Sequence record: NC_042307.1
Strand: one strand, 5' to 3'
Length of the DNA: 64,000 nucleotides
From: a phage
The notes under the pieces were generated by a model. The model ran no database searches. It worked only from the letters and a program-made list of their open reading frames with translations, and was not told the origin of the DNA. The position numbers and the translations under genes were made by a program. This document shows, one piece after another, positions 22,267 to 46,257 of this stretch. Positions within the stretch are counted from its first letter, which is position 1. Each line of letters begins with the position of its first letter.

Positions 22267-22340
22267 TTGGTTTCCCTCTCATTAATTTATATAATTATTA
22301 TAACAAGAAATAAGAGAGAATGCAAATGAATTTTTAAATT

Positions 22341-22415
22341 TGGTGCTCCCACCAGGAATCGAACCCGGTTCAGATGCTTACAAGGCAACTGCATCGCCAG
22401 CAATGCTTTAGGAGC
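22341..22415 (-). tRNA. tRNA-Thr (anticodon UGU), one mismatch in anticodon stem
   Basis: Hand-folded; CCA encoded. Confidence 0.5.
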
Positions 22416-22435
22416 GATGATCCCGTTATTTCAAC

Positions 22436-22600
22436 GGGATTTCTTTTTCAATAACAGGAGACTTATCAGTCATAACTGTCATAGCCAACTGCTGAAGAAA
22501 CTCGAAAGTTAGCTTTAAACGTTCTTCACCTAATTCAATCTCAACGTATTTCTTTTGCTTGTCAACCTTTAATTTTAGGTTATCAGCCATCTTCTGATTC
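22436..22600 (-). CDS. small hypothetical protein (54 aa, below track cutoff)
   Basis: ATG 22600 to TAA 22436; 'MADNLKLKVDKQKKYVEIEL...'. Confidence 0.3.
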
Positions 22601-22804
22601 TCGTTGCTCGGCTACTGCTAGCCAGTCTGGTAAAAGAAACTTAGTACGAAACTCTTCATAAGATTCTTCTGGATAAAAGCTAAAACCTCCTTTCTCATCA
22701 TTCAAGATAACAGAGCCGTCAGTTTGTTCATACGCTCGATATGTTTCTCCAATAATGATAACTCGCTTATCAGTACTTTTATTACGAAACTCAAAAACGT
22801 GCAT
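22583..22804 (-). CDS. hypothetical protein (73 aa)
   Basis: ORF. Confidence 0.35.
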   Translation of the reverse strand: MHVFEFRNKSTDKRVIIIGETYRAYEQTDGSVILNDEKGGFSFYPEESYEEFRTKFLLPDWLAVAEQRESEDG

Positions 22805-22818
22805 TGTGTTTCCTTATT

Positions 22819-22893
22819 TGGTGCGGGATACGAGAGTCGAACTCGTGTTTACTGGTTGGAAGCCAGTTATTCTAGCCACTGAACTAATCACGC
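22819..22893 (-). tRNA. tRNA-Gly (anticodon UCC)
   Basis: Hand-folded; CCA encoded. Confidence 0.6.
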
Positions 22894-22900
22894 ATTAATT

Positions 22901-22984
22901 TGGCTGGAGAAGGAGGATTCGAACCTACGTACCTTCCGGTTATGAGCCGGGTGCTCATACCATATGGGCTTGAGAACCAGAATT
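22901..22984 (-). tRNA. tRNA-like element, anticodon loop 'CUCAUAA' (CAU), acceptor stem noncanonical
   Basis: T-arm and CCA present; 5' acceptor does not pair. Confidence 0.3.
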
Positions 22985-23073
22985 TGGCGGAAGAAGTGGG
23001 AATCGAACCCACAAGGCTATATTTCAAACCGACAGATTAGCAATCTGCTGCAAAACCGTTCTGCTATTTTTCC
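22985..23073 (-). tRNA. tRNA-Ser (anticodon GCU), class II with long variable arm
   Basis: Hand-folded; CCA encoded. Confidence 0.55.
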
Positions 23074-23093
23074 GGATTTATAAATATATTATA

Positions 23094-23612
23094 TTAGAAA
23101 TTTAGCTTCATGGCAAGAAAATTTTTCAAGTTTTCGGTAGACATCTCATCCACATCTATAGGAGAAACAAACCCATTTAATTGTTTAGCAAACTTTTCGC
23201 CAGCAGGATCATTATCCCCAACAGCTACCAATTTAAAAGGTAGTAATTTCAATTGCTTTAATAGCGGTTTTCCTGGAGAAGAACCCAACATTGCTAGAGC
23301 AGGATACCCAGCATTATGTAATGCTACAGCCTTAAATACAGATTCAGCAATTAATACTACTTTTTCATCCCCATTGAGAGTTTCTAGTCCCCATACACAC
23401 TGTGTAGTAGAATAAGTAAAATATCTAGCTTCAAAGGGGCACTTACCATGACCTTTTGGAGCAGAAGGATTATAAGTCTGATAGCCTCTCAACATTCCAG
23501 AGAAGTCATACAATGGGACTGTTAGCCATCCTTCTGGGCTTAACCAGCAGTGATATTTATCTGTATCAAACCCTCTAGATAAGAGATGTTCTGTTAGTTC
23601 ATCAATAGTCAT
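23094..23612 (-). CDS. Toprim-like domain protein
   Basis: 'VVLIAESVFKAVA...VAVGDNDPAGEKFA'; ATG 23612 with GAGAGG RBS. Confidence 0.4.
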   Translation of the reverse strand: MTIDELTEHLLSRGFDTDKYHCWLSPEGWLTVPLYDFSGMLRGYQTYNPSAPKGHGKCPFEARYFTYSTTQCVWGLETLNGDEKVVLIAESVFKAVALHNAGYPALAMLGSSPGKPLLKQLKLLPFKLVAVGDNDPAGEKFAKQLNGFVSPIDVDEMSTENLKNFLAMKLNF

Positions 23613-23831
23613 ACTAGATTCCTCTCTCAAATTTATAAATATATTATGCAGAGAATTTAGCATTCAAGCAATTGAATTTTTTAACTTTTTAGAGGAAAAT
23701 CACAGGATGCTTAAGGGTAGCAGGTAAGTGGGTAGACCCCAAAATTGTTATCCCCACTTGATTTTCAATGTGATATAGTGTAAAGTATTTGTCATAGCTG
23801 AGTGACCAAAGAGACACACTTATCCTCTACC

Positions 23832-23873
23832 TTAAAACAGAAAAGCCCTGCGCTCTCCAGGGAACACAGGGCT
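23832..23873 (-). terminator. Rho-independent terminator
   Basis: Stem AGCCCTG/CAGGGCT, 'tttctgtttt' in minus sense. Confidence 0.55.
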
Positions 23874-23897
23874 TACTTCGAATATTACGTGTGGGAA

Positions 23898-24845
23898 TTA
23901 CTTGTTACGCATATCCATAATCATCTGGCCATCGTAACCAGTGCCAACTACTGTTTGAGGTACACCGCCTTGATATTTCTGAGCACGAATCATTTCAACT
24001 TCTAGTTGTTTCCAGCGAATCATCTCAGGAGTAATAGTACGTTGCAGAGCGGCGTTAGCTTCGGCTTCCTTCTTAGCTGCGTACAGTTTAGCATCTGCAT
24101 CACGTTCGTTTGCAATAGCTTGGTTGTTACGAGCTTCACGATCTGCTTCTGCTTGTTTAACCTTCTGCTGTGCTTCTTGTTCAACACGAGCCAACTCAGC
24201 TTTCGCAGCATTAACTTGTTCCTCACGAACTTTGGTATTCTGTACCTGTTCCATGATTACAGGCGGCAAAGTAATATCCTGAAGGAACACTTGCTTAACT
24301 GTGTAACCATAAGGGCGTGCATACTCTTCAACTTCCTGTTGAATTGCGGTTTGTAATTGAGCCTGGATTTTAGCATCAAACAAATCTTGTGCTTTAGGAA
24401 CAGACTTACCGAACTCACGAATAGTGGACAGTAATTTTTCAGTTACATATTTGTCTAATGCTTGATCCTGGGTACCTGCGTTAATACGGTTAATCGGTGC
24501 CTTAGAACCATCAAACTGCAACATAACAGTCAGGTCAACAGTGGATTTAAACTTATCCTGACTAGGAACCTGAAGTTTATCTAATTTTACAGCAATGTCT
24601 TTTGTACTAAAAGTATCGAAAGATGCAAATGGGTTTACAAGATGAAAACCAGGTAATACAGGATTAGGGTCTACTTTACCCAGAAATGTTTGGGTTTTAA
24701 CCGTACCATCAGAAACAATAGTATATGAATTAAAAGCTAGGATTAAACCTGCTAAACCAACTACAGCACCAATACCCCAACGTTTAATAGTGCGGATTAC
24801 TTTTTGCTCAGAAGTCAGTTCTTTCATATTTTTAGTATTAAACAT
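23898..24845 (-). CDS. SPFH/band-7 (prohibitin/HflC-like) membrane protein
   Basis: N-terminal TM, long Ala/Glu/Gln-rich coiled coil; AAGGA RBS. Confidence 0.55.
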   Translation of the reverse strand: MFNTKNMKELTSEQKVIRTIKRWGIGAVVGLAGLILAFNSYTIVSDGTVKTQTFLGKVDPNPVLPGFHLVNPFASFDTFSTKDIAVKLDKLQVPSQDKFKSTVDLTVMLQFDGSKAPINRINAGTQDQALDKYVTEKLLSTIREFGKSVPKAQDLFDAKIQAQLQTAIQQEVEEYARPYGYTVKQVFLQDITLPPVIMEQVQNTKVREEQVNAAKAELARVEQEAQQKVKQAEADREARNNQAIANERDADAKLYAAKKEAEANAALQRTITPEMIRWKQLEVEMIRAQKYQGGVPQTVVGTGYDGQMIMDMRNK

Positions 24846-24879
24846 ATATTTCCTTTGTTTTAGTTACAGTTAATAAAAT

Positions 24880-24954
24880 TGGCCGAGGTGACAGGATTCG
24901 AACCTGCATAAAGGAATTTAGAAGACTCCTGCCTCTCCCTTAGACTACACCCCG
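24880..24954 (-). tRNA. tRNA-Arg (anticodon UCU)
   Basis: Hand-folded; CCA encoded. Confidence 0.55.
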
Positions 24955-33783: not shown

Positions 33784-34316
33784 TAATAAGTAACCAATTC
33801 CTGTACAAATCGCAGGCTGTTATCACTGTTTGCGCCAACTGCATAGACTAATCGAGTGGATTCATAGTTATAATCCAGTATCATACTATCTAGGTGTATA
33901 TCTGCCTCTAGCTTCTGTTCACTAAAGATTGTAGATACAAAAGCACTTTCAATATGCCCATGTTGATACATTTCTAGAAGAAGATTAGCTCCACCTAGAA
34001 CTACTGTTTGCTGATCTTTTAGAAAAGTAGGTAATGTATCACCTATCATTGATATGGGAGTGTAAATATCATGTGTAATATCGTCTGGCAGTGGACGATC
34101 AGCACGAATAAATAGGTCAGAAGCTCCAATCATACGTTCCCTAACGGCATATGGAAGAGCTAAATAAGTACCTGCCCCAATAATAATATTATCAGGATTT
34201 AGTACATCTAATTGTGAATAAAAAGCATCTAGTTCTTCTTTAAAAGAACCCCAGGGGAGCTTACCTCGGAGGCCGAACTCCCCATTCGGCCCAACTGCAT
34301 ACATTGCTGTAATCAT
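33783..34316 (-). CDS. frd: dihydrofolate reductase
   Basis: 'MITAMYAVGPNGEFGLRGKLPW'; position next to thyA. Confidence 0.7.
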   Translation of the reverse strand: MITAMYAVGPNGEFGLRGKLPWGSFKEELDAFYSQLDVLNPDNIIIGAGTYLALPYAVRERMIGASDLFIRADRPLPDDITHDIYTPISMIGDTLPTFLKDQQTVVLGGANLLLEMYQHGHIESAFVSTIFSEQKLEADIHLDSMILDYNYESTRLVYAVGANSDNSLRFVQELVTY

Positions 34317-35459
34317 AGGAAGTCTCCAAATTCATTACCCAAATCTTTCAAGGTATCAGTAGAGGTCTCAGTTACCTGACCTACACGGTAGGCTGCACCA
34401 ATCTGGATTTCTTGTGGGGCAGGCTGTAGAGAAGTAGTATCCAACCAGTTCATGATCCACGGAATAGGGTTTTTAGTGATTACTGGTAAGTGACTAGGCC
34501 ATTCTACACCAATGTGCATAAATGCGTTACGCCCCACAAAGTACAAGTATTCTTCTAGAAGTTCTGCATTCAAACCAATCAGACTACGACCTTTGAAGAT
34601 GAAATGACCCCATTCAATTTCAGTTTTAAGAGTTTTCAGGAGTTGTGCTGGTGCTTTAGCCACTGCTTCATCTACCAGATCTTTGTCAAACTGCTGGAAC
34701 ATAATCTGGATGATTGTTTTAGACATCTGAGTATGTAGGGCTTCATCTTTAGCAATCAATTGCAGATTTTTAGCAATACCTTGCAGAATATCGTTCTCTG
34801 CTAACGCAAAGGTACATGCAAAGGATGCGTAGAACTGCATTGCTTCCAGACCGTAGATTGCAAAATAAGCATCTAACAGTTTAGCCTGAGTTTCACGCTT
34901 AACCTCAGGGAACTCAGTTTCTGGATATGTATTGTCACCACGATGATCACGTACTGCGATGAAATACTGACCTAACTGGTACAGTTCATCGAACAGCTCA
35001 ACAGAATCAGCGATACGTGCGAATGCTTCTTGGTTTTTGGTTACAGAATCAATAAATTCTGCCGGATCAGTCAGCACATTACGAATAATATTACTATAAG
35101 CACGACTATGCAGGTCTTCAAAGTAGCTCCACTGCTTGAGCATACCTTCTAGTTCTGGACGACTTACAAGCGGCATAATAGCTGCTTCAGGCGCTCGACT
35201 GATAAAGGAATCAGTTTGGGTCTGCCATGCTAAGTTCAGGAGTGTGATTTCCTGAATTTCACGTGGGAGATTGGGCCATTGTTTCTTATCTGCTTCCAGA
35301 CTGATTTCAGTTTCAGTCCAAAATTGAGAGCGTTGCAGAAGTGCCAGACGTTCTAGTTCTGGATGTGCTACACGTACATAATCTGCGATACCTAGAGAAT
35401 CGCCCCAGGAAAAGATCAGCGTTAGTATGATCCCAATTCAGGTTTAGTAAAGTAGTCAT
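34313..35459 (-). CDS. nrdB: ribonucleotide reductase small subunit NrdB, interrupted by apparent +1 frameshift near 35401-35404
   Basis: Track ORF 34313..35176 carries 'FYASFACTFALAE', 'DEALH'; N-terminal homology continues upstream in same frame to 35437, but RBS+ATG at 35459 is in another frame. Confidence 0.6.
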
Positions 35460-35594
35460 TGATTTTCCTCTTTCTCACTATTTCAGGAATATTATAGCAA
35501 ATCAGGTAGCGATTAGCAGGTAAAATTATAAACTATCAAGCTCCAATAGTTTCATATCGCGCCACTCTATAGCATCCTCAAGTTCTTGGAATGT

Positions 35595-36017
35595 TTAAGT
35601 ATATTTTACACCTTTACGGGCTATCTGTACCTGGTAAGATCCGCTAGCTTTTGGATGAATATTTTTAATACCTAACTTATTATCTTTATGCGCCCCGACA
35701 TTCTTTCCGTTACTGAATCTATCAGAAGCTACTAGGTTAATAGCTCTATTATCATGTCGTATTCTATTGTCGTGGTCTACTTCAGGTGGCAGATACCCAT
35801 GAATTTTAGCAAAGATTACCCTATGTGCTAAGTAGGGGTATCCTTTAATATTTAATACTATATATCCTGTAGATTTATCTAAGGAGCCTGCTGGTTTTCC
35901 GGCATATTTGGTATTAAATGTTTTATTATCTCTAGGTCTATGAGTTAATATTCCAGTATATGGATCATAATCAAATAATTTAGCTACCTCTAGATGATCT
36001 TCTAATGTTTTTGACAT
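35595..36017 (-). CDS. HNH homing endonuclease inserted between nrdA and nrdB
   Basis: 'PEVDHDNRIRHDNRAINL'; ATG 36017. Confidence 0.6.
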   Translation of the reverse strand: MSKTLEDHLEVAKLFDYDPYTGILTHRPRDNKTFNTKYAGKPAGSLDKSTGYIVLNIKGYPYLAHRVIFAKIHGYLPPEVDHDNRIRHDNRAINLVASDRFSNGKNVGAHKDNKLGIKNIHPKASGSYQVQIARKGVKYT

Positions 36018-36082
36018 AATTATAATTTCCAACCAATTAGTATAAAAAATAAGAGGGTTATAATTAACCCTCTTTACTAGTT

Positions 36083-38410
36083 TTATAAGGTACAGCCACC
36101 TGAAGAACATCCTGTAGTTTCTCCAGCTCCTCCACCATTCGCAGTGTTAAAGTTAGCATAATACCAGGTTTTTATACCATACTTAACCGCAGTCATAAAG
36201 TCACGAACTACTACTGGGCCAGGGATGATTTCATTCTCGAATTTAGAGTAATCATAATACATCTGGAAACTTGATGACTGACTCAAGAATTTTTGGTAAA
36301 CGGCGTTCCATTTGATCCACTCAGTGCGATCAATATCATAAGCTAGTTTATAGCTCATTAACGTTTCCCAGTCGGTTGCACCTGGAGCAATTGCAATTAC
36401 TTTATTTACTGCACTACCTTTGATAGATACAATCTTACGAGGTGGTTCGATAGAGTTAGTAACACCTAACAGAACAGAAGAACTTTCTCCCGGCATCTGA
36501 GCAGTCAGAACAGAGTTACGCATACCATATTTCAGAATATCTGCACGCAGAGACTCCCAATCCATTTCTAGACCTACGGATACCAGTTCATCAACAGTTT
36601 TCTTGTACGTGTCGATTACCAGAGTTCCTTTAGATGGTTTAGTACGATCGAACCATTCACATGCACCTTGCTCTTTGGCTAGACGTACAGAGGCTTTATG
36701 CAGGAAGTAGGACAATTTTTCAGCTTCACGATGAATCCAGTTACGAGCCTCAATACCTTCATAAGCCAGACCTTCTGCTGCCATTGCACCTGCTGCGTTC
36801 ATCAGACCAATACCAACGTTACGACGTTTCTTAGCCGTATATTCCATAGTTGGGAACGGGTAATCCTGAATTTCAATGATGGTATCAACAAATTTCAGAA
36901 GAATATAGCAAGTCTTTTCCCACTCAGCCAGAGATTCCATGCGTCCTAATACAACACCACCTAAGTTACACAGAGATACTTCCCCAATATCCTCCGGCTT
37001 CATTTGATCGAGTTGTTCTTTTGTTTTATACAGTTCCGTGATATGATGGAACGGGCGTGTAGGCTGAGTAATTTCAACACAAAGGTTGGTCATACGAATC
37101 GGGTCAAGGAAGTTACCATGACGGTTAGATTCACCAATGTGATGAGCATACATACGCCCTGTTTCCATACGGATACGTAACCAAGTATCTAGGATTTCTT
37201 TTGCAGAGATTCTAGGAGCTGCTGGAATTGTTTTTCCTTCGTGGTCGGTCTTTGTAAGAGATGCCACACGTTTCTCCGCTGCCACGTAGATTTCTTCAAA
37301 CTTAGCCTCATCTTCACCATAAAACGCTTCATGAACTTCTGGTGCGTAGAAGTAGGACATTAGCGTAATATCTTCGTTTTTCAGGTAACGTTTTAACAGA
37401 AGGTTGTTAAAGCTCAGAGAATAATCCATCTTATCGATTTTATTCTCGTCTGTAGCACGTTGCTGCTTAACCTGCATCAACTGAATGATTTCAGGATCGA
37501 AGTATGGATAAGACACAGTAGCAGAACCGCCACGGGTTTGCTGAGTGTTAGCTTTTACTGAACGGTCAATGTGTCGATAATATGGCAGTTTTCCGGAATG
37601 CGGGAATGCCCCATTTCGCACCGGATCAGCAATTGATCGGCTTTCAAGATGATACCCGATTCCCGCTCTGGCTGCGACCATTTTGAAGACGATGTGCTCG
37701 GCTGTGTCGATTGAATCCAACGTGTCAGTGGAATCCACGAGGCAGCAACTAGCAAATCCACGGTCACTAGAACGCAAACCAACCAGTGGCGGCGTAGGAA
37801 CGTTGATTTTGTGGAGCGACATTGCATTGTAGAGATCGATTGCATCTAGAATTGTCCAGTTGGGTTGAGATAACATCGCCATTGCCATGCCCATATAGGC
37901 AAATTGCGGGGTTTCGTAAATTTCACCAGTGGCTATATTACGACGGGAATATTTATCAAAGAACTGTTTCAGTCCACCACTAGTAAAAAGACGGTCACGA
38001 TCGTGGTCTATAACCTGATTCAGAGCTTCAAATTGCTCATCGGTAATCCATGCACTCATGTCTTCCCATGCACCTACACTAACCATATGATCGTGGAAGA
38101 AGCGTAGAGAAGGTGGTTCGAAGGAATCATAAAGGCGTTTACGCATCTGCGCAAGACGTAATTCCTTTGCTGGCACGTCGTATGCTGGATTATCTTTAAT
38201 AAGACTTTCGGCAGCTTTAATTAACGCATCCATCAGAGTATCGGAATCTACAACCCCTTTAGGCAGAGTTTTTTGAGCAGCCATAGTAATGGCAGACCAA
38301 CTTACATCAACTGTTTTGCAACCATACTCTGCCCAACCATTGAGTTTTTCAGGAGCAAAGTCTTCTACAGTACCGTCACGTTTAATTACTTTTTCAATGC
38401 GATGGCTCAT
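36083..38410 (-). CDS. nrdA: ribonucleotide reductase large subunit NrdA
   Basis: ATP-cone N-terminus, 'CNLG', C-terminal Cys pair; ATG 38410 with AAGGA RBS. Confidence 0.8.
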   Translation of the reverse strand: MSHRIEKVIKRDGTVEDFAPEKLNGWAEYGCKTVDVSWSAITMAAQKTLPKGVVDSDTLMDALIKAAESLIKDNPAYDVPAKELRLAQMRKRLYDSFEPPSLRFFHDHMVSVGAWEDMSAWITDEQFEALNQVIDHDRDRLFTSGGLKQFFDKYSRRNIATGEIYETPQFAYMGMAMAMLSQPNWTILDAIDLYNAMSLHKINVPTPPLVGLRSSDRGFASCCLVDSTDTLDSIDTAEHIVFKMVAARAGIGYHLESRSIADPVRNGAFPHSGKLPYYRHIDRSVKANTQQTRGGSATVSYPYFDPEIIQLMQVKQQRATDENKIDKMDYSLSFNNLLLKRYLKNEDITLMSYFYAPEVHEAFYGEDEAKFEEIYVAAEKRVASLTKTDHEGKTIPAAPRISAKEILDTWLRIRMETGRMYAHHIGESNRHGNFLDPIRMTNLCVEITQPTRPFHHITELYKTKEQLDQMKPEDIGEVSLCNLGGVVLGRMESLAEWEKTCYILLKFVDTIIEIQDYPFPTMEYTAKKRRNVGIGLMNAAGAMAAEGLAYEGIEARNWIHREAEKLSYFLHKASVRLAKEQGACEWFDRTKPSKGTLVIDTYKKTVDELVSVGLEMDWESLRADILKYGMRNSVLTAQMPGESSSVLLGVTNSIEPPRKIVSIKGSAVNKVIAIAPGATDWETLMSYKLAYDIDRTEWIKWNAVYQKFLSQSSSFQMYYDYSKFENEIIPGPVVVRDFMTAVKYGIKTWYYANFNTANGGGAGETTGCSSGGCTL

Positions 38411-38753: not shown

Positions 38754-39515
38754 TTACACCTTCCCCATGTCTTTAAAAATATCGTAGAATGCTTTAGACT
38801 CAGCAGAACGAACGTTATCAATCAATTCGATCATTGAGAATGGAGCATTTTCATATTTCTCATAAACTTCCATAAGAAGTGCTAGACCTGAGTCACCTTT
38901 AATGTCTTTCTGAGCTATATCTCCGCAGATAATTAAACGGCAGTCTTGTCCTACACGAGTTAGGAGACAAACCATTGCCTCAACGGAAATATTCTGAGCT
39001 TCATCGACAATTACATAGGAGTTGTTGAAAGTTCTGCCACGAGCATGTTCTATAGCCAAAAATTTAATTTTCTGACGTTCGACATATCCCTTATAGGCAT
39101 GATCACCGATGGCCCATTTCATACCATCAGCTATTGGCTCCAACCAAGGCTCTAGCTTTTCTGCTAGATCACCAGGAAGCATACCAAGAGACTTACCTAG
39201 AGGTTCATTAGGACGTACGAGGATCACTTGCTCAATATCTGAGTGAATGTCTACGAGTTCCTGAGCTGCAAGAACAGACGGGATAAAGGTTTTACCTGTA
39301 CCTGGCTCACCGATACCCACAGTCACTGTGTTGTTCTTGATCATATTAATATATGATTTTTGCTCTCGGTTTTTACCTACTAGGGATTTAGCAACTGGGT
39401 TAGCGTAATCATTAGAAAAATCAGCCTGAATTACGTTATTCTCATATTTGTTGCCACGCTTTCTTGAACCATTGCGGTTCTCTCTTTTTTGACGTGCTTT
39501 TCCCATAAATAACAC
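38754..39515 (-). CDS. phoH: PhoH-like ATPase
   Basis: Walker A 'GEPGTGKTF'. Confidence 0.7.
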   Translation of the reverse strand: MLFMGKARQKRENRNGSRKRGNKYENNVIQADFSNDYANPVAKSLVGKNREQKSYINMIKNNTVTVGIGEPGTGKTFIPSVLAAQELVDIHSDIEQVILVRPNEPLGKSLGMLPGDLAEKLEPWLEPIADGMKWAIGDHAYKGYVERQKIKFLAIEHARGRTFNNSYVIVDEAQNISVEAMVCLLTRVGQDCRLIICGDIAQKDIKGDSGLALLMEVYEKYENAPFSMIELIDNVRSAESKAFYDIFKDMGKV

Positions 39516-39800: not shown

Positions 39801-40670
39801 GTGGAATGCCCGAAAAAATTAACTCAAGAAGAAGTAGATAAATGCCTAGCCGAGCGTGGTTTTACTATGGTGGATAAGCCATATCAAAATTCTAGGTATA
39901 GGCATACGTATCAGTGTGAATACGGTCACCAATGGACAGCTAAATTTGACGCTATTAGGAATGGAAAGACCAATTGTCCTACTTGCTCTATTAGTAGCCG
40001 TAAACTAGATATTGATAAAATTAATACTATATTACAGGACAGAGGTATTACATTGTTGAACGGCTATAAAAATAGTGCCGATATAAATACTAAATTTAGG
40101 TGTGTTTGTGGTCATGAGTGGGCTACTACACTTAATAGTATAATTAATAGAGGTAGTGGCTGCCCATCTTGTGCTGCTAATAAACAGAAACTTAGTGTTA
40201 ATACTATAAATGATCGTCTTGCTGCCAGAAATATCAGAATAGTGGGTGAGTATAGTAATGCGAATACTAAGACCGCCTTTCTTTGTGGTGCAGGGCATAG
40301 GTGGGAAGCTACTCCAGGGTCTGTATTAAGGGGGAACGGTTGTCCTTACTGTAGTTATAGAGATTTAGAAAGTACTAGGATATATGTTATGTATAGCCCC
40401 TCACATGGGGTTAAAATAGGTAGGTCTAACAATCCAGAGCGTAGACTTCTACATATTAGATCTAGTAGCCACCTTATTGATTTGGAAATAATTAAAGTAT
40501 TTGAAATTGGGGAATATAGTAGTGCAGTTCGAATAGAAAAATTAGCCCATAACTACTTTAAAGAGCAGAATTGCCAGTACAAAGATTTTGACGGCGCTAC
40601 GGAATTCTTCAATATTGAACCAAAAGTAGCTATAAAGTTTATCGAGGAAATAATCAATGACAGAGAATGA
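39801..40670 (+). CDS. T5orf172/GIY-YIG-like endonuclease with four zinc-ribbon repeats (GTG start)
   Basis: Repeated 'C.C.H.W....GCP.C'; 'RIYVMYSPSHGVKIGRS'. Confidence 0.55.
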   Translation: MECPKKLTQEEVDKCLAERGFTMVDKPYQNSRYRHTYQCEYGHQWTAKFDAIRNGKTNCPTCSISSRKLDIDKINTILQDRGITLLNGYKNSADINTKFRCVCGHEWATTLNSIINRGSGCPSCAANKQKLSVNTINDRLAARNIRIVGEYSNANTKTAFLCGAGHRWEATPGSVLRGNGCPYCSYRDLESTRIYVMYSPSHGVKIGRSNNPERRLLHIRSSSHLIDLEIIKVFEIGEYSSAVRIEKLAHNYFKEQNCQYKDFDGATEFFNIEPKVAIKFIEEIINDRE

Positions 40671-42483
40671 ATTAATTGAGAATTGCAAAGGTCTGCTCAC
40701 TCTAACTGCGGATAAGGACTTACAGCATAATAATGCTAATAAGCCTAGTGAGATGTTCCATACTCAAAGAGACTTATTGGCCGGAGAAATCAACAAATAT
40801 TTAGTATCGCAGGAATTACCCAAACATCTATTAGACGCCCATAATCTAGGTAAGATACACATTCATGATATGGATTACAGGGCGCAGGGGTACACTAACT
40901 GTTGCTTAGTAGACCTTGGTGGCATGCTGAAGAATGGTACTAAAATTGGTAATGCAAATATTGAAACTCCTAAATCCATAACTACTGCATGTGCAATCAC
41001 TGCTCAGATTATTGCCCAAGTATCTGGTGCTCAGTATGGTGGCACCTCTATTGATCGTATCGACGAGGTTCTAGCCCCGTATGTCAGAAAGTCTTACAAT
41101 AAACATCTGGGTCGTGGGCTACGTTGGCTCAAGGATGAAAGAAAAGCTGCTGTGTATGCTACTGAGCTTACTGAAAAAGAGTGTTATGATGCATTCCAAG
41201 CTCTAGAGTATGAAACTAATTCATTATTTAACTCTAATGGGCAGACCCCTTTTGTTACGCTTGGCTTTGGATTAGGTCAGGAGTGGGAGGAAAGGATGAT
41301 TCAGAAAGCCATCCTCCAAAATCGTATTAAAGGTTTAGGTGCTGCTGAGTCAACCCCTATCTTCCCTAAACTAGTATTCTCAGTTAAAGAAGGGTTAAAT
41401 AAAAATCCAGGCGATCCTAACTACGATATAAAACAGCTAGCACTTGAGTGTTCTGCTACCCGTATGTACCCAGACTATTTAAGCTATGAGAAAGTTGTAG
41501 CTGTTACTGGTGATTTTAAAGCCCCTATGGGTTGTCGTAGCTTTTTATCTGCTATCCCCTCCGGAGAAATTGCAGGGCGCAATAATTTAGGTGTAGTGTC
41601 TATTAATCTACCTATGGTTGCTGCTGAGGCAGATGGGGTTTTTGAAGATTTCTGGGATATTCTGGACAAATATGTGGATGAGGCTTTTGAAGCTCATGAT
41701 TTTTTCTTGGATAGACTTAAGAAAGTGAAGGCTAAACAAGCCCCTATTCTTTATATGCACGGTGGTTTTGGTGTGCGTTTAGATGGGGAAGAGTATGTAT
41801 GGCCTATTTTTGAGGGTAGATCTTCTGTATCTCTTGGATACATTGGGGTCTATGAGATGTGCCAAATAATGTTTAGTCTACCACAAACCCATAGGGATTG
41901 TATTGAATTTACAGAAGAAGTTCTTACTCACCTAAAAAATCGTTGCGAAGTTAAAGCTAATGAGACTAATCTTGGATTTAGCTTATACGCTACCCCTAGT
42001 GAGTCTCTATGTAATCGTTTTAATAAATTACTAGAACGTAGATTCCCAGAGTATTCTTGGTTAACAGACAAAGGCTATCTTACTAATAGTCACCATTTGG
42101 ACGTAAGAGAGAAGGTAGCCCCAGATACTAAATTTGAGTACGAAGCTCATTTTACCAAAATAGCTAATGGTGGTAATATATCGTTTGTGGAATTACCACA
42201 AATGAAAAAATTCCATAAAGCTCTTGAATACGTAGTAGATAAGGGACTAGAGTGTAGCCATTATATCGGTGTTAATATACCGATTGACGAGTGTTTCAAC
42301 TGTGGATATATGGGTGAATCTATTGCCTCTGAGCGTGGGTTTGTATGTCCAAGTTGTGGGTCTGAAGAAATAGAGGTTACACGTAGGGTTTGCGGGTACC
42401 TGGGATCCCCGGGCAGTAGGCCTTTCAATTCTGGGAAACAAAAAGAAGTGCTTGGTAGAGTAAAACACTTAAATCTTAAGTAA
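40657..42483 (+). CDS. nrdD: anaerobic ribonucleoside-triphosphate reductase NrdD
   Basis: Glycyl radical 'RRVCGYLG', zinc site 'CFNCG...CPSCG'. Confidence 0.8.
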   Translation: MTENELIENCKGLLTLTADKDLQHNNANKPSEMFHTQRDLLAGEINKYLVSQELPKHLLDAHNLGKIHIHDMDYRAQGYTNCCLVDLGGMLKNGTKIGNANIETPKSITTACAITAQIIAQVSGAQYGGTSIDRIDEVLAPYVRKSYNKHLGRGLRWLKDERKAAVYATELTEKECYDAFQALEYETNSLFNSNGQTPFVTLGFGLGQEWEERMIQKAILQNRIKGLGAAESTPIFPKLVFSVKEGLNKNPGDPNYDIKQLALECSATRMYPDYLSYEKVVAVTGDFKAPMGCRSFLSAIPSGEIAGRNNLGVVSINLPMVAAEADGVFEDFWDILDKYVDEAFEAHDFFLDRLKKVKAKQAPILYMHGGFGVRLDGEEYVWPIFEGRSSVSLGYIGVYEMCQIMFSLPQTHRDCIEFTEEVLTHLKNRCEVKANETNLGFSLYATPSESLCNRFNKLLERRFPEYSWLTDKGYLTNSHHLDVREKVAPDTKFEYEAHFTKIANGGNISFVELPQMKKFHKALEYVVDKGLECSHYIGVNIPIDECFNCGYMGESIASERGFVCPSCGSEEIEVTRRVCGYLGSPGSRPFNSGKQKEVLGRVKHLNLK

Positions 42484-42490
42484 GCTAATC

Positions 42491-42525
42491 AGCCAGGTTG
42501 CTAGTCGACCTGGCTTTTATTTTAT
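42491..42525 (+). terminator. Rho-independent terminator after nrdD
   Basis: Stem AGCCAGGT/ACCTGGCT + 'TTTATTTTAT'. Confidence 0.6.
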
Positions 42526-42582: not shown

Positions 42583-42960
42583 ATGAAAGTAAAACCCTAT
42601 ATCATTGTTTCAACCTGTGGGAGCTACCAATTAGCGGTAGAAACCATAGAAGAAGCTATTTTTGCTGCTACTGGTGATTATTCTCATCTTGAGGGGGTTG
42701 GTTATCCTACCATTATTGGTAATTGGGTGGAAACTAATTTAGATGTTAATCCATATAATTCTGATTATGAAGATGAAGAAGAGGTACAGGATAACATTGA
42801 ATTTGTATATAAAAGAATCTTAAGTATCTATGAGCATCAGGGCAGCCCTATTGAGTATGTGGATATTACTGAAGTAGCTAAGAAGCGCCTTAAATACGTT
42901 TATGCCAATTTTTCAAATGAAGACCTGGAAACAGTTGCAGTGGAGTTTAATAATGACTAA
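42583..42960 (+). CDS. hypothetical acidic protein (125 aa)
   Basis: ORF with GAGAGG RBS. Confidence 0.5.
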   Translation: MKVKPYIIVSTCGSYQLAVETIEEAIFAATGDYSHLEGVGYPTIIGNWVETNLDVNPYNSDYEDEEEVQDNIEFVYKRILSIYEHQGSPIEYVDITEVAKKRLKYVYANFSNEDLETVAVEFNND

Positions 42961-43159
42961 GAATGTAAAACACCTTAAATATCGCTTAATTTACAACGGA
43001 CGTATGGAAACAGAAGACCTAGCTCAATTAGCTATTAATTCTAATGAGGTCACGGTACGTGCGTTAGCTATTGAAAAGTTGCGGGCTTCTTATGAAAGTC
43101 GTATTATGGAACTAGAGGAGAAACTTTATGGCATTCTCGAAGCCGATGCTACCCGATAA
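42953..43159 (+). CDS. hypothetical protein (68 aa)
   Basis: ATG 42953 overlapping upstream stop. Confidence 0.35.
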   Translation: MTKNVKHLKYRLIYNGRMETEDLAQLAINSNEVTVRALAIEKLRASYESRIMELEEKLYGILEADATR

Positions 43160-43349
43160 TGGCTTAAATGCTGCGCTGGAAAATGCATTGATGCAGCAGT
43201 GGGAGGCTGGATATAAGGATGGGGTTGAATCTTGTGCAAAAATAATGGATATTATGGCTAATTCTGTAGTTGGGAAAGCCCATCCAGAAGTATCTGATAT
43301 ACTCCATAACCTTAGTAAAAACTTCAGAGAGCAGGTGAAAAATGCGTAG
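43128..43349 (+). CDS. hypothetical protein (73 aa)
   Basis: ORF. Confidence 0.35.
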   Translation: MAFSKPMLPDNGLNAALENALMQQWEAGYKDGVESCAKIMDIMANSVVGKAHPEVSDILHNLSKNFREQVKNA

Positions 43350-44166
43350 ATTAATTATTATTAGTGGTGCAGGTTTGAGCGTTGAAAGTGGTGTACGAGC
43401 CTTCCGTACTGATACTGCTAGTGGTAAAGCATTGTGGGATGATTATGACTTAGAAGAGGTATGTAATATTCATGCCTTTCGTGGTAGCTTTTACCACAAA
43501 ACTCACGAGTTCTACAACAAACGTCGTGAAGAGTTAGAAACTGTTGAACCCAATCTTGCACACTTGCGTATTGGTGAGTGGTATAAACAATACCCAGGTC
43601 AAGTAGTAAACTTGACTACCAACGTTGATGACCTTATTGAGCGTGCTGGTGTTCCGCATAGTGACATTCTACATATTCATGGGTATTTAAAAGAGGTTGT
43701 TGTAGCTGACAGCTACAATAGCAGTAATAAACGAGTTATTGATGTTGGGTATAGCTCTATTGACCCGGATGATTATAAATGGGTTAAACCTAATGTAATC
43801 TTCTTTGGGGAGCATGCTCCAGCGTACGCAGAAATGTACAATATTTTTGATGGTATTACTAGTCAAGATATGATAGTTGTAGTTGGTTGCTCTAACCAAG
43901 TAATTAATTTCTACTGGGAATTATTTCCTATTCTTAACCGTACTGCTGCGAAACTTATGGTAGTTAACTACTATGATAGTGCCCTAGCGGCAGAACCAGG
44001 CTATCAAGGTATGACTCGTAGTGATATGTACCAACTGGAAGATCGTGGTATTCCTTACTGGAGTAAAGGTGCGGTAGATGCTTTCAGTGACCCTGGTTTT
44101 ATCGCTCGTGTAGAAGCTCATCTAGAGGGTAGACCTTATATGCCGGGGAAACAGACATGTCCATAG
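43342..44166 (+). CDS. Sir2-like NAD-dependent deacylase/ADP-ribosyltransferase family protein
   Basis: 'IIISGAGLSVESGVRAFR' NAD-binding motif. Confidence 0.6.
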   Translation: MRRLIIISGAGLSVESGVRAFRTDTASGKALWDDYDLEEVCNIHAFRGSFYHKTHEFYNKRREELETVEPNLAHLRIGEWYKQYPGQVVNLTTNVDDLIERAGVPHSDILHIHGYLKEVVVADSYNSSNKRVIDVGYSSIDPDDYKWVKPNVIFFGEHAPAYAEMYNIFDGITSQDMIVVVGCSNQVINFYWELFPILNRTAAKLMVVNYYDSALAAEPGYQGMTRSDMYQLEDRGIPYWSKGAVDAFSDPGFIARVEAHLEGRPYMPGKQTCP

Positions 44167-44339
44167 TTAAATCTGTGTATACACATCCTGATGATATATT
44201 TGTATGGGCGGATGGTAGTTGGTGTTATCGATGTGAGCTATGGGAAATGGACTATAAATCTGATGACTATGGTGTCATATATGTTGATACGGTTGAGTAT
44301 GATACGTTCTTAGCAAGGGACAAAAATGGAAATAAGTAA
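44157..44339 (+). CDS. hypothetical protein (60 aa)
   Basis: ORF overlapping neighbours. Confidence 0.35.
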   Translation: MSIVKSVYTHPDDIFVWADGSWCYRCELWEMDYKSDDYGVIYVDTVEYDTFLARDKNGNK

Positions 44340-44832
44340 TACTCCAATTATTTTTCTAGATATTGATGGGGTGCTCAACTCGAGCATCTCTCATCACCAT
44401 GCACCTAATGATGAAAAGATTTTCTTTGGAAGTGACTGGGTTTTTAAACCGCTTCTCAAGGCTTTTCAGGACTTTATTCGTCCTTCTCCAATAATGATTG
44501 TTGGGGTATCTTCATGGTTCTCTGTCAGGAATGAGATGGAGAACGTTCAGATTATGACCGGATTAGATCTTATCGATCGTTTTCTTGGTACAACGGATTT
44601 TACTGGTGGTGGGCTATCTAGGGGTAATTCTGTTCTTCGCTTCGTTGAAAAGTATAAGCTCAAACATTGGTGTGTGCTGGATGACGCTGGTGCTATGATG
44701 TATCAGTATCCAACGGTTATAGTCAATGGTAGAACTGGAATAAATCTTCAAGATTTAAGAGCTGTTAGCTATATGTTAGAATTTAGTCCAGATCTTGAAA
44801 TGTGTAAAGCCCTACAACAATTTAAGGTGTAA
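44326..44832 (+). CDS. HAD-superfamily phosphatase-like protein
   Basis: Motif I 'FLDIDGVLN'. Confidence 0.5.
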   Translation: MEISNTPIIFLDIDGVLNSSISHHHAPNDEKIFFGSDWVFKPLLKAFQDFIRPSPIMIVGVSSWFSVRNEMENVQIMTGLDLIDRFLGTTDFTGGGLSRGNSVLRFVEKYKLKHWCVLDDAGAMMYQYPTVIVNGRTGINLQDLRAVSYMLEFSPDLEMCKALQQFKV

Positions 44833-44834
44833 AT

Positions 44835-45263
44835 ATGTTTAATAATGTATTCTCTAAAGAAGCTAACCCAATATTGGTTAATTTTTGGCGTACTCTTCCA
44901 GACAACCTGTACAATGAGGCTATTAATGCCCTGAAAATATGGTGTGATAATAATGAAATCTCCTTTGCTTTTAGAGGTGAGGTTGAAGAATCTCCCTGTA
45001 TTGGTTTAATTGTGCAGGTAGAGGATGGTTTTGAAGAGATTGTCGGCTGGAAAGAGTTAGATGAAATGGGCTTGGTTTTTGCATTAAACTATAAGCTATT
45101 TATGCCCAATAAACACCGTATTGTTGTTAACTATAAAACCGGTGAATCTCCTGGTTTTCAAGTTAACGAACATTACGGTTGGTCTTACTCACCGGAAGAG
45201 GTAAATGATGGTATCCAGAAACTTCGTCGTTTTGGTTATCAAATTCCGGGTTTAACTGCCTAA
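44835..45263 (+). CDS. hypothetical protein, paralog A
   Basis: Shares 'SF.F...PC.G', 'GL..ALN..LF', 'PGL' with next ORF. Confidence 0.5.
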   Translation: MFNNVFSKEANPILVNFWRTLPDNLYNEAINALKIWCDNNEISFAFRGEVEESPCIGLIVQVEDGFEEIVGWKELDEMGLVFALNYKLFMPNKHRIVVNYKTGESPGFQVNEHYGWSYSPEEVNDGIQKLRRFGYQIPGLTA

Positions 45264-45272
45264 GGAGGCACA

Positions 45273-45665
45273 ATGGAACAAGTATACTGGCGTCAGATAG
45301 ACCCTAGTTTGGTGAAGCGTGCGGAGAAGCTGCTACAACGTTGGTTGGGGGTAAGACAAGCCTCCTTCACTTTTCCGGAGCAGCAAATAGACGATCCCTG
45401 TGTTGGTGTTTTTCTATCAGGCTACGCTGGGGAATGGGAATTGGATTGGAATGAATTGTCTGCTATAGGTCTAATTGTTGCCCTAAATTTCTCTTTGTTC
45501 CATCCACGTGGTTTGGCCATATGTCGTGTGCCTGAGGACGGTTGTTCGCCCCATCTTTTACAGGTGGAAGATGATATTTGGGAGTACACTCCAGATATTC
45601 TCAAAGAAGCCAAAGAACAATTAAACCGTGTTGGGATTTATGTTCCAGGCCTGAATGATGAATGA
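45273..45665 (+). CDS. hypothetical protein, paralog B
   Basis: Tandem paralog of 44835..45263. Confidence 0.5.
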   Translation: MEQVYWRQIDPSLVKRAEKLLQRWLGVRQASFTFPEQQIDDPCVGVFLSGYAGEWELDWNELSAIGLIVALNFSLFHPRGLAICRVPEDGCSPHLLQVEDDIWEYTPDILKEAKEQLNRVGIYVPGLNDE

Positions 45666-45804
45666 TTTTTATTAGCTGAACTTTGTAATCCGGGCTATTA
45701 GTGCTCGGATTATTACATAATCTTTTCAGTCGATTGATAGTCAAAATAAATTGTCGTTGACAATTTGGATGGATTATGTAATAATATATGTATTGGAGGT
45801 GAGG

Positions 45805-46257
45805 ATGTCATTCACACAGCAAGAACTTTTAGATAACTTCCGGTATGAAGAGGGTAAGTTATTTAGAACTACAGGAAGAAATGCAGGGAAAGAATGTTGT
45901 GTTTCTACGGGTAACGGATATTATCGTATATCTCTAGGGAATAGGACTATGCTTCGGCATAGAGCAATATTTTTAATGCATCATGGATACTTACCTGATT
46001 TAGTAGACCATGTGAATACTATAAAAGGTGATGATCGTATTGAAAATCTTAGAGAGCAGACAGTATCCGGTAATCTAAGAAATATCAAATATAAGAAAGG
46101 AATGCATGTTTACCCTTCTGGTAGTAAGAACTGGCAAGTGGTATTTACTATTAACCGTAAACGTATAGTTAAAGGAACATATGACAACTATGAGGTTGCA
46201 TGTTCTATGGCCAAGATGTTTAGAGGTCAATTATACGGTAGGGAATCAATCCAGTAA
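45805..46257 (+). CDS. HNH homing endonuclease
   Basis: 'HRAIFLMHHGYLPDLVDHVNTIKGDDRIENLR'; ATG 45805 with GGAGGTGAGG RBS. Confidence 0.6.
   Translation: MSFTQQELLDNFRYEEGKLFRTTGRNAGKECCVSTGNGYYRISLGNRTMLRHRAIFLMHHGYLPDLVDHVNTIKGDDRIENLREQTVSGNLRNIKYKKGMHVYPSGSKNWQVVFTINRKRIVKGTYDNYEVACSMAKMFRGQLYGRESIQ

Follow-up and report, generated by a model that had tools for sequence, protein, structure and literature searches.

An apparently dispensable sirtuin–phosphatase module beside a separable DUF7415 pair in the early-gene block of a T5-like phage

The window analysed here – a 64,000-nucleotide stretch of phage DNA (sequence record NC_042307.1) – comes from a Tequintavirus, a T5-like phage. Its positions 43342–45665 hold a Sir2-family protein (PF02146), a 60-residue open reading frame (ORF), a HAD_SAK_2 phosphatase and two DUF7415 paralogues, all orthologous to genes in the T5.102–T5.107 range and all part of the well-conserved T5.100–T5.107 early-gene block. 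Situated between nrdD and the replication genes, and near td, nrdA, nrdB and PhoH, the genes form a tightly packed single unit that starts after a strong intrinsic-terminator-like hairpin (42491–42515, + strand; 10-bp stem and T-run) separating it from nrdD. The latter gene (40657–42483, + strand), an anaerobic ribonucleotide reductase with the glycyl-radical motif RRVCGYLG in its translation and with homologues annotated NrdD, is upstream context outside the module. The unit also includes three further small overlapping ORFs at 42583–43349 on the + strand (42583–42960, about 42953–43159 and 43128–43349; overlaps in the series of 59, 32 and 8 nt), comprising orthologues of T5.100 and T5.101 plus a third small ORF; they match phrog_11748, phrog_5236 and phrog_5827 in a PHROG scan and gave no significant match in a Pfam search. 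Downstream lies an HNH homing endonuclease gene (45751–46257, + strand; PF13392) with its own promoter-like site (45757–45785, scoring 11/12 in the promoter scan), which is an adjacent mobile insertion outside the module; T5 has no annotated gene at this place, T5.107 directly preceding T5.108. All genes of the block are under purifying selection (dN/dS 0.06–0.29 against two relatives).

An earlier note on this DNA had described four ORFs here – a Sir2-like protein, a HAD hydrolase and two small paralogous proteins – as one cluster. Their coordinates and + strand are confirmed, the two small proteins are indeed paralogues (31% identity, E 9e-21), and the profile searches proposed there as a check gave scores far over the curated cut-offs for all four proteins (24 bits for PF02146, 27.5 bits for PF18143 and 27 bits for PF24187). 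The 60-residue ORF, the tandem DUF7415 domains within each paralogue and the larger packed unit had been missed.

The sirtuin, orthologous to T5.102 (43342–44166, + strand; 274 residues, containing GAGLSVESGVRAF), matches PF02146 with 85.5 bits, its residues 9–187 covering model positions 1–178 of 180. Its closest solved relatives are CobB and SIRT5, with E. coli CobB (1s5p) the best at E 2.5e-17. G9-A10-G11, S16-G17, F21-R22, N94 and H113-G114 are invariant in eight phage lineages and CobB, and an alignment of the eight lineages likewise leaves the motifs GAGxS..SG..FR, FYNxRR and FGE unchanged; the catalytic residues Asn94 and His113, whose loss the earlier note had considered, are therefore both present. 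The class III YxxR motif reads Y58-N-K-R61 and aligns to Y-N-A-R of CobB; Y58 is invariant, and R61 is shared by CobB and seven of the eight phage sequences, the jumbo phage having L. The protein resembles the class III sirtuins CobB and SIRT5 in its Rossmann NAD-binding motifs, catalytic Asn and His, FGE loop and YxxR, yet it is only about 33% identical to CobB and, unlike these two, carries a C-terminal extension and sits in phage-specific gene contexts. The four-cysteine Zn module is also lost: the Zn cysteines of CobB are kept in none of the eight phage sequences, the region here reading DSYNSSNKRVIDVGY, and the segment after the GxS motif is V-I-N-F where bacterial sirtuins have a conserved V-Y-P. 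Loss of the Zn ligands has been noted earlier for KVP40-like phage sirtuins.

With a dN/dS of 0.13–0.15, the sirtuin retains 95% identity within Tequintavirus, 58% to Vequintavirus, 53% to Justusliebigvirus, 41% to BF-type Eneladusvirus and 40% to KVP40-like relatives; its orthology to the SP15, V5 and BF-type sirtuins places it in the phage RNA-repair sirtuin clade. The likeness to Sir2 NADases of defence systems suggested in the earlier note did not hold up: this is a canonical CobB-like sirtuin, and a search against 5027 PADLOC models gave no match at E ≤ 0.01 to defence-type SIR2 (Thoeris ThsA, DSR, SIR2-HerA or pAgo-SIR2).

The sirtuin is followed by the conserved 60-residue ORF (44157–44339, + strand; T5.103/T5.104 orthologue, phrog_5116 at E 3e-29), which overlaps the Sir2 gene where that ends and the HAD gene where that begins, occurs beside Sir2 only in Demerecviridae loci and is duplicated in T5 and S113. 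The phosphatase itself (44326–44832, + strand; 168 residues, T5.105 orthologue, PF18143 at 69.9 bits) contains FLDIDGVLN and lies one small ORF downstream of Sir2. With this HAD as neighbour and no Macro match in the cluster, the locus agrees with the conserved neighbourhoods of the RNA-repair sirtuin clade, in which Sir2 is accompanied by an RNA end-processing enzyme (HAD-SAK, cREC, 2H, Nudix, Rnl1 or kinase) and not by a Macro domain. Tested against the HAD superfamily motifs (DxD nucleophile, S/T, K/R and DD), its catalytic D12, D14, S62/S63, R99 and D119/D120 proved invariant or nearly so in 19 sequences reaching down to 36% identity. The AF2 model (pLDDT 94.7) shows a capless (C0) HAD with only a β-hairpin flap, and its closest folds – MDP-1 as the best, SCP1, UBLCP1 and Fcp1 – include macromolecule-directed phosphatases. 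In sequence, by contrast, no similarity to any solved structure is detectable, whether to the capless MDP-1 and SCP1/Fcp1 or to the phosphatase domain of T4 Pnkp, PDB searches with the single sequence and with a profile having returned nothing significant. T4 Pnkp also falls outside the top 60 fold matches, and the window protein has no kinase domain.

These resemblances bear on a reading, in our view unlikely, in which the sirtuin works as CobB does, as a lysine deacetylase or desuccinylase, and re-tunes enzymes of the host or the phage (acetyl-CoA synthetase, for example, or those of nucleotide metabolism), with the HAD either a protein phosphatase or simply a neighbour unrelated to it. The nearest solved relatives, the conserved catalytic residues, the FGE loop and the acyl-carboxylate motif Y58/R61 agree with it, as do the best NCBIfam models, which are NAD-dependent protein deacylases; furthermore, proteins are the substrates of MDP-1 and of the CTD phosphatases, and a host-takeover deacylase role has been proposed for the KVP40-like Vibrio phage sirtuins, which likewise lack the Zn ligands. 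However, the top NCBIfam score is 101.9 bits against an equivalog cut-off of 243, all scores staying far below their cut-offs so that equivalog-level similarity to CobB is not reached; the Zn cysteines and V-Y-P are gone; and in three lineages the gene neighbourhoods are centred on RNA or NAD rather than on protein modification.

The last two genes encode DUF7415 paralogue A (44835–45263, + strand; 142 residues, T5.106 orthologue, phrog_2502, PF24187 at 115 bits over two stretches) and paralogue B (45273–45665, + strand; 130 residues, T5.107 orthologue, PF24187 at 104.6 bits), the latter with two domains and a conserved C-terminal PGL tail. Each is a tandem of two DUF7415 domains, a view that rests on the Pfam model matching twice in each; single-domain homologues align to the C-terminal half, and BLAST of the N-terminal against the C-terminal halves detected no internal duplication. 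A set of 1.84 billion proteins contains only 146 representatives, which makes this a small family, and its fold is a small β-α-β-β repeat with no solved structural neighbour, the best structural match being the anti-CRISPR AcrIC4, a small α/β phage protein over which 52 residues superpose at 2.4 Å. DUF7415 is a phage-only small α/β domain, present four times at this locus (two genes with two domains each).

How far these genes belong together can be read from their distribution. Sir2 and HAD are conserved together, adjacent in three different orders among divergent T5-like lineages, and they are also lost together: two natural isolates, Bas34/SelmaRatti and SHSML-45, carry independent joint deletions of both, whereas Bas32 and Bas33 retain them. 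Both genes scored ‘Not Fit’ in the T5 CRISPRi-ART screen. Given this co-deletion and the screen results, Sir2 and HAD look like one dispensable unit. The earlier note had counted a conserved but dispensable T5-family block against its proposal of a counter-defence module, and Sir2–HAD is dispensable in just this way; dispensability on a laboratory host is, nonetheless, what would be expected of a counter-defence gene, and the counter-defence reading is therefore not refuted by it.

The DUF7415 pair is separable from Sir2–HAD: the L015 and L017 lineages keep Sir2–HAD but lack DUF7415, Klebsiella T5-like phages have DUF7415 and no HAD, and both deletion variants retain the pair intact. The single cluster of the earlier note thus stands for Sir2 and HAD, which hold together, and not demonstrably for the paralogue pair. 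The best explanation of the block as a whole, which takes in the reactions described next and which we put forward tentatively and at somewhat short of even chances, is that two units, separable although they share transcription as early genes, make it up: an accessory module of two enzymes that the phage can do without (Sir2–ORF60–HAD) and, separately, the DUF7415 pair.

As to substrate and reaction, we infer that the Zn-less sirtuin most likely spends NAD+ on moving ADP-ribose to a phosphate-bearing acceptor. The acceptor proposed in the literature would be the 2′-phosphate left on an RNA end by a metal-independent ribonuclease, as for KptA/Tpt1, and such a step would release nicotinamide and an ADP-ribose cyclic phosphate; the capless HAD would then strip a phosphate, either from the RNA terminus or from the ADP-ribose by-product. 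The benefit would be the restoration of damaged tRNA or RNA ends, or the clean-up of NAD-derived phosphates, in hosts that attack the phage translation apparatus or the NAD pool. The comparison with KptA/Tpt1 extends to the proposed chemistry (NAD+-dependent ADP-ribosyl transfer to a 2′-phosphate with nicotinamide release) and to analogous RNA-repair gene contexts; the KptA/Tpt1 fold, however, belongs to the ART superfamily and is unrelated to the sirtuin, for which the KptA-like removal of RNA 2′-phosphate is a computational prediction.

Both the Sir2–HAD neighbourhood and the RNA-repair prediction are already in the literature: Iyer, Burroughs, Anantharaman and Aravind (2022) described it as their type 3, typified by Escherichia phage SP15, and predicted KptA-like NAD-dependent RNA repair. 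SP15 is 90.9% identical in nucleotide sequence to the window across the block, and the gene family, the Swiss-army-knife-like HAD neighbour and the phage group are the same, with no material difference in Sir2–HAD. Their account does not discuss the 60-residue ORF, the DUF7415 pair, the absence of ligase and kinase, the natural deletions or a link between HAD and NARP1; new here are the joint persistence and loss of Sir2–HAD, the window without ligase or kinase, the coupling of HAD_SAK_2 to NARP1 and the connection with Bas34 sensitivities. In the literature after Iyer et al. (2022), we found no experimental or biochemical work on any sirtuin of this clade.

The RNA-repair reading is favoured by the published prediction, by the joint loss, by the likeness of the capless HAD to macromolecule-directed phosphatases and by gene contexts in other lineages. 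In Vequintavirus phage 206, the 58%-identical Sir2 orthologue is preceded by a T4 Rnl1-type RNA ligase and a cREC cyclic-phosphate domain, and adjoins a P-loop polynucleotide-kinase-like gene and a metallophosphoesterase; the jumbo-phage orthologue is flanked by a 2H/Acb1-like protein, a Nudt16-like Nudix–cREC fusion and PIN-PhoH; and in Aeh1, HAD_SAK_2 lies about 2 kb from rnlA. Tblastn of RNA ligase (two versions of Rnl1), the PNK-like kinase, cREC, metallophosphoesterase, Nudix and 2H against the 64-kb window gave only E > 0.3, one representative query having been used for each at BLAST level, a sensitivity too low to reveal a ligase or kinase of divergent or unrelated sequence. Going by the window, the T5-type module could therefore heal RNA ends but would not seal them.

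Against RNA repair stand, besides this lack of ligase and kinase matches, the protein-deacylase features retained by Sir2 and the translational coupling of a distant HAD_SAK_2 homologue to NARP1, an NAD-rebuilding operon defined by the Adps–Namat pair. In ChuuTotoro-like phages, homologues 38–43% identical to the HAD lie directly upstream of a Prs-like Adps and a NAPRTase-like Namat, in one case with a 4-nt overlap, and this coupling points to a small-molecule ADP-ribose (ADPR)-phosphate substrate rather than to RNA ends. Also on this side, the phenotypes of BASEL T5-like phages against PARIS and OLD, considered as a readout of Sir2–HAD and rejected, do not track the module cleanly: an intact module does not spare Bas33 from PARIS, and missing tRNAs account for the sensitivity of Bas34 to OLD, which tRNAs rescue.

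The earlier note had spoken of an NAD+/ADP-ribose or counter-defence module. That link is plausible, while the published prediction for the neighbourhood is NAD-dependent RNA repair and not NAD metabolism. In its specific form – which we consider unlikely – the HAD would be a phosphatase for ADP-ribose-1″-phosphate or a related compound, a non-homologous analogue of the Macro-domain Adpp of NARP1-AP, and Sir2–HAD would shield from NAD-depleting immunity an NAD+ pool needed by the phage NAD-dependent DNA ligase. Some NARP1 operons recruit an ADPR-1P phosphatase that defeats aRES (Osterman et al., 2026 preprint), its gene lying in or abutting the Adps–Namat operon, the same place as that of the ChuuTotoro-like HAD_SAK_2; moreover, the jumbo-phage Sir2 lies 1 kb from a NAMPT gene. 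Bas34, for which sensitivity to both NAD-depleting and tRNase defences has been reported and which is named as the T5-like BASEL phage restricted by NAD-depleting PsAvs2 and Vesta, lacks Sir2–HAD, whereas Bas32 and Bas33 have the module. On the other side, the characterised Adpp is a Macro-domain protein and not a HAD; only distant HAD_SAK_2 homologues abut NARP1, and in one phage lineage only; the window appears to have no Adps, Namat or NAMPT, going by tblastn with a NAMPT/Namat query, which found no homologue in the 64 kb; a sirtuin consumes NAD+, which leaves its part in an NAD-protecting pathway unexplained; and the Bas34 phenotypes are confounded by fewer tRNAs and by escapers that map to A1.

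A bolder version, to our mind distinctly unlikely, would make Sir2–ORF60–HAD an unrecognised, NARP-independent, NAD+-centred counter-defence, with the HAD an independently arisen ADPR-1″-phosphate phosphatase, the sirtuin acting on an NAD-derived or phosphorylated acceptor and the DUF7415 pair, separately, a new-fold protein important for T5 growth. If it were true, loss of Sir2–HAD would explain the unusual sensitivity of Bas34 to PsAvs2, Vesta and possibly tRNase systems.

For the DUF7415 pair, neighbours in other phages suggest a binding or adaptor protein tied to enzymes of nucleotide metabolism rather than an enzyme. The domain is fused to thymidylate kinase and to a MazG-like dNTP (dATP/dGTP) pyrophosphohydrolase, a PHROG scan of the fusion partners giving no function beyond thymidylate kinase, and in T4-like phages it lies between nrdD and nrdG, after rnlA or near nudE; these associations come from a handful of lineages only. 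In the T5 CRISPRi-ART screen, T5.106 was ‘Not Fit’ and T5.107 ‘Fit’ at a borderline, marginal level.

The same fusions and the nrdD–nrdG position would suit a nucleotide-pool module, in which the HAD is a (deoxy)nucleotidase, DUF7415 provides subunits or adaptors of dNTP synthesis and the block belongs with the td–nrdB–nrdA–PhoH–nrdD region where it lies; HAD_SAK_2 also adjoins td in Aeromonas phages. We hold this to be highly improbable: small-molecule nucleotidases are not typically capless HADs, the sirtuin is left unexplained, Sir2–HAD is kept in a lineage without nrdD, and early regions are so densely packed that adjacency alone is a weak argument.

Annotation of the T5 sirtuin dates back to the sequencing of the genome, and the protein has orthologues in about 1000 phage genomes, yet its activity has never been measured. 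Should the KptA-like prediction hold, no sirtuin before this one would have been shown to act on RNA, and phages would have a new way of answering immunity based on ribonucleases; should the NAD-centred reading hold, the NAD+ arms race would gain an extra layer. The question is cheaply testable, as the deletion phages (Bas34 and SHSML-45) and intact siblings (Bas32 and Bas33) are in a public collection and Bas34-specific sensitivities are already in published screens. The DUF7415 pair marks a modest yet genuine gap in knowledge – a phage-only fold that outlasts the deletion of its neighbours, with one copy (borderline) fitness-relevant in T5.

Several other ideas about DUF7415 were considered and rejected. 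The tail of paralogue A, RRFGYQIPG, recalls RRVCGYLGSPG of NrdD, and this, with the single-domain homologue between nrdD and nrdG, prompted the idea of a glycyl-radical ‘spare part’ for NrdD, like GrcA/YfiD; the GY motif is missing from paralogue B and from the single-domain proteins, the Pfam search gave no Gly_radical match, and the small β-α-β-β repeat fold is also against it. A stand-in NrdG activase is unsupported, as DUF7415 shows nothing of a radical-SAM protein and is found in some phages that have no nrdD; tblastn found no NrdG homologue in the 64-kb window. A match to phiCTX orf7 and records naming a ‘tail tube protein’ prompted the comparison with LysM-like tail protein X, and orf7 proved to be a separate gene, the P2 X homologue being the next one, orf8; the database names ‘exonuclease’ and ‘tail tube’ are without support. 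As a minor observation on the neighbouring gene, the nrdD allele of the window has just 61% amino acid identity to the 8sent1748 copy, though the two phages are otherwise 93% identical.

The region matches 444 phage records, best of all Tequintavirus genomes, with Salmonella phage 8sent1748 at 93.3% and Escherichia phage SP15 at 90.9% identity over 3.8 kb. The ORFs listed in the earlier note are present, all on the plus strand, and profile searches bear out its domain calls: the gene at 43342–44166 matches SIR2 (PF02146; 85.5 bits), that at 44326–44832 matches HAD_SAK_2 (PF18143; 69.9 bits), and the two small proteins (paralog A, 44835–45263; paralog B, 45273–45665), which are indeed paralogous (31% identity to each other, E 9e-21), belong to DUF7415 (PF24187; 115 and 104.6 bits). 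Its list missed one conserved gene, ORF60 (44157–44339, plus strand; 60 aa; phrog_5116), which overlaps the Sir2 end by 10 nt and the HAD start by 14 nt. The T5 counterparts are T5.102 (Sir2), T5.103/104 (the small ORF, duplicated in T5), T5.105 (HAD) and T5.106 and T5.107 (the paralogs).

These genes form a compact block lying between the minus-strand td–nrdB–nrdA–PhoH group plus nrdD on one side and the origin-binding protein on the other. Its start is marked by a strong terminator-like hairpin (42491–42515) that follows nrdD. Three small ORFs, Sir2, ORF60, HAD and the two paralogs come next, no overlap or gap between them exceeding 9 nt, and the block stops short of an HNH endonuclease with a promoter-like site of its own. 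Compared with two relatives, all block genes show dN/dS values of 0.06–0.29, HAD being the most constrained, and are therefore real genes. ORF60 itself carries the motif W.DGSWCYR...SDDY and has no Pfam family; single-copy in the window, it is tandemly duplicated in T5 (T5.103/T5.104) and S113 (locus L013, 4330–4678), and among the loci compared by tblastn it occurs only in T5-like (Demerecviridae) ones, always beside Sir2.

As SP15 is among the closest relatives, the Sir2–HAD part of the block is already described, as a prediction only. Iyer, Burroughs, Anantharaman and Aravind (Viruses 2022, PMC9503650, section 3.7.3) defined a distinct phage sirtuin clade with three neighbourhood types and proposed that the sirtuin acts like KptA, using NAD+ to remove 2'-phosphates from cleaved RNA, while its partner enzymes would act on cyclic phosphates, opening them, or on the by-product, ADP-ribose cyclic phosphate; our literature search found no experimental study of this after 2022. 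With this specific neighbourhood already published as a predicted RNA-repair system, what remains new here is limited: the co-loss and dispensability of Sir2 and HAD, the link between HAD_SAK_2 and NARP1, the lack of a detected ligase or kinase partner in the window, the recognition of phage Bas34 as a natural mutant, and a first account of the structure and context of DUF7415.

Orthologs of the sirtuin occur in some 1000 phage records, spanning T5-like, rV5-like, phi92-like, KVP40-like and jumbo phages, and the gene contexts behind the 2022 prediction could be reproduced. In Vequintavirus phage 206, a 58%-identical sirtuin is preceded by a T4 Rnl1-type RNA ligase and a cREC domain and lies beside a metallophosphoesterase and a P-loop kinase annotated as polynucleotide kinase. 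The sirtuin of an Eneladusvirus jumbo phage has as flanking neighbours a 2H/Acb1-like protein, a Nudt16-like Nudix–cREC fusion and a PIN–PhoH protein, and NAMPT lies 1 kb upstream of it. The HAD_SAK_2 gene of Aeromonas phage Aeh1 adjoins td, about 2 kb from rnlA. Within T5-like lineages the Sir2–HAD pairing robustly withstands rearrangement: the order is Sir2–small–HAD in Tequintavirus, Epseptimavirus and My1, nrdD–HAD–small–Sir2–small in a 71-kb metagenomic contig (L015), and HAD–small–Sir2–small beside PhoH, without nrdD, in another (L017). A tblastn search of the 64-kb window, with a single representative query for each of RNA ligase, polynucleotide kinase, cREC, metallophosphoesterase, Nudix, NAMPT and NrdG, gave no homolog (all E > 0.3), such a search being blind to divergent or unrelated ligases and kinases. 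This counts against a complete repair pathway; on this evidence, a T5-type module could heal RNA ends, not seal them. Of the explanations considered, we rank highest that Sir2–HAD is a KptA-like RNA end-healing or by-product-processing unit, at somewhat below even chances.

Among solved structures, E. coli CobB (1s5p, E 2.5e-17) comes closest to the sirtuin, with archaeal Sir2 and human SIRT5 next. Aligned across eight phage lineages and CobB, the NAD-binding GAGxS..SG..FR, Asn94, His113–Gly114 and the FGE loop are shared and invariant, so that the loss of catalytic His or Asn, proposed in the earlier note as grounds against its own reading, is not seen. The class III Tyr58/Arg61 pair is also kept, except for Arg61 to Leu in the jumbo-phage sequence. 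Unlike cellular sirtuins, none of the phage members keeps a Zn-ligand cysteine – a loss known earlier from KVP40-like phage sirtuins – and the protein scores 102 bits against the 243-bit threshold of the CobB equivalog models, with V-I-N-F after the GxS motif where bacterial sirtuins conserve V-Y-P. To a CobB-like deacylase we give a low probability. Likeness to Sir2 NADases of defence systems, which the earlier note had drawn on, is wrong: the protein matched none of 5027 defence-system models and is therefore not a defence-type SIR2 NADase. Between Tequintavirus and Epseptimavirus (43342–44166 versus L013 3501–4352) Sir2 is about 52–62% identical and the adjacent HAD 90%, the sirtuin evolving much faster than its partner or having been exchanged; some lineages carry a 26-aa insertion after its Phe46.

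T5.102 to T5.106 are all 'Not Fit' in the CRISPRi-ART screen of T5 (Adler et al. 2025, supplementary files). The screen is insensitive, primase, nrdA and the origin-binding protein being scored likewise, so that these calls alone are weak evidence. Natural deletion variants are stronger evidence of dispensability. SelmaRatti (Bas34; MZ501103.1, L019 at ~2518) has lost the equivalent of window 43652–44685, joining Sir2 residues 1–103 to HAD 117–168 and removing the catalytic His, ORF60 and the HAD nucleophile, while a different deletion in Shigella phage SHSML-45 (NC_031022.1, L020; window 43203–44514) leaves nothing of Sir2 or the small ORF and removes HAD residues 1–60. Both are viable isolates with an intact DUF7415 pair (88–95% identity), and these two independent joint losses are consistent with one unit that is useful under some conditions. 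In Klebsiella T5-like phages, HAD is absent, whereas Sir2, the small ORF and the two DUF7415 genes are present.

Bas34 is thus a ready-made natural Sir2–ORF60–HAD mutant, and it bears on the NAD+/ADP-ribose counter-defence role suggested in the earlier note, a plausible idea to which we give a low probability. Published screens report it as unusually sensitive: it is named as the T5-like BASEL phage restricted by the NAD-depleting PsAvs2 and Vesta, and as 'the only' Tequintavirus that the OLD tRNase restricts; Bas32 and Bas33 have the module intact, and the publications found on these sensitivities do not mention the deletion. However, Bas34 lacks phage tRNAs that rescue the OLD phenotype, A1 is where the Vesta escapers map, and Bas33 is PARIS-sensitive although it has the module, so these confounded correlations are leads, not evidence of function. 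In favour of such a role, ChuuTotoro-like phages place two distant HAD_SAK_2 homologs (38–43% identical) immediately upstream of Prs-like and NAPRTase-family genes (Serratia phage ChuuTotoro, L014 5001–8217; L016 4001–7519), one HAD overlapping the Prs-like gene by 4 nt. That gene pair is the definition of NARP1 (Adps plus Namat), and a 2026 preprint reports that some NARP1 operons recruit the ADPR-1''-phosphate phosphatase Adpp against aRES, a RES-type NAD+ phosphorylase defence. HAD_SAK_2 holds the position of this phosphatase in NARP1-AP operons, where Adpp is a Macro domain rather than a HAD (the preprint does not mention HADs); by analogy, HAD_SAK_2 may be a non-homologous Adpp counterpart acting on ADP-ribose phosphates, which is also compatible with the by-product-processing role proposed in 2022.

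By profile search, DUF7415 has just 146 members among 1.84 billion representatives, mostly of 60–200 aa, and we found no paper naming it. Its invariant positions are mainly buried aromatic or aliphatic residues and a C-terminal P-G-L tail, the latter present on both paralogs and absent from single-domain members; its variable region is the first-repeat hairpin, which in paralog B (residues ~27–56) is hypervariable and carries indels even though the orthologs are conserved elsewhere. Clues point to a nucleotide-metabolism context: the domain is fused to thymidylate kinase and, in two separate representatives, to a MazG-like dATP/dGTP pyrophosphohydrolase, and its gene is placed exactly between the Jiaodavirus nrdD and nrdG, comes immediately after rnlA in Aeh1 and lies two genes beyond nudE in Slopekvirus and Pseudotevenvirus. 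P2-like phiCTX also has the domain, between capsid and tail genes. A nucleotide-pool module is the reading that we rate lowest. The pair is not an obligate Sir2–HAD partner, because it is missing from two lineages that keep Sir2–HAD and retained where these are deleted. T5.107, the paralog B ortholog, is among 17 'Fit' T5 genes and listed as 'of entirely unknown function' (Adler et al. 2025), albeit with a marginal call (fitness -2.90, p 0.02, versus +3.0 and +1.7 for clear hits). We infer a non-enzymatic binding or adaptor role, the weakest part of this account.

Several features of the surrounding window deserve mention. The HNH endonuclease (45751–46257), with a near-consensus promoter, is inserted between paralog B and the origin-binding gene, at a position that has no annotated gene in T5 and differs among relatives. 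The nrdD allele (40657–42483) is just 61% identical in amino acids to the 8sent1748 and S113 versions, the DNA immediately 3' being 93% identical to 8sent1748, which indicates allelic replacement or a mosaic boundary near the 42491–42515 terminator. Overlapping the nrdD start, a 289-aa ORF (39801–40670) combines repeated treble-clef zinc-finger/CapR modules with a T5orf172/MUG113 (GIY-YIG-like) domain, probably making it a homing endonuclease; L015 has a similar gene ahead of nrdD. Within 34313–36110, the nrdB ORF (287 aa) covers just positions 75–271 of the small-subunit model, the relative's nrdB having ~381 aa, and an HNH endonuclease gene (35595–36110) comes after it; a mobile element or an intron may thus interrupt nrdB here. 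A PhoH ATPase recurs near Sir2/HAD in T5-like lineages (window 38754–39515; L015 1322–2086; L017 1339–2115), directly adjoining them where nrdD is absent, and in a jumbo phage (L012 5046–6500) is fused to a PIN RNase domain. GC skew turns from negative to positive at ~40 kb, coinciding with the minus- to plus-strand gene switch between PhoH and the T5orf172-like ORF. Six minus-strand tRNA genes (21712–24954) encode Met, Ile, Thr-UGU, Gly, Ser and Arg species, Thr(UGU) being the one reported to rescue phages from the OLD and PARIS tRNases.
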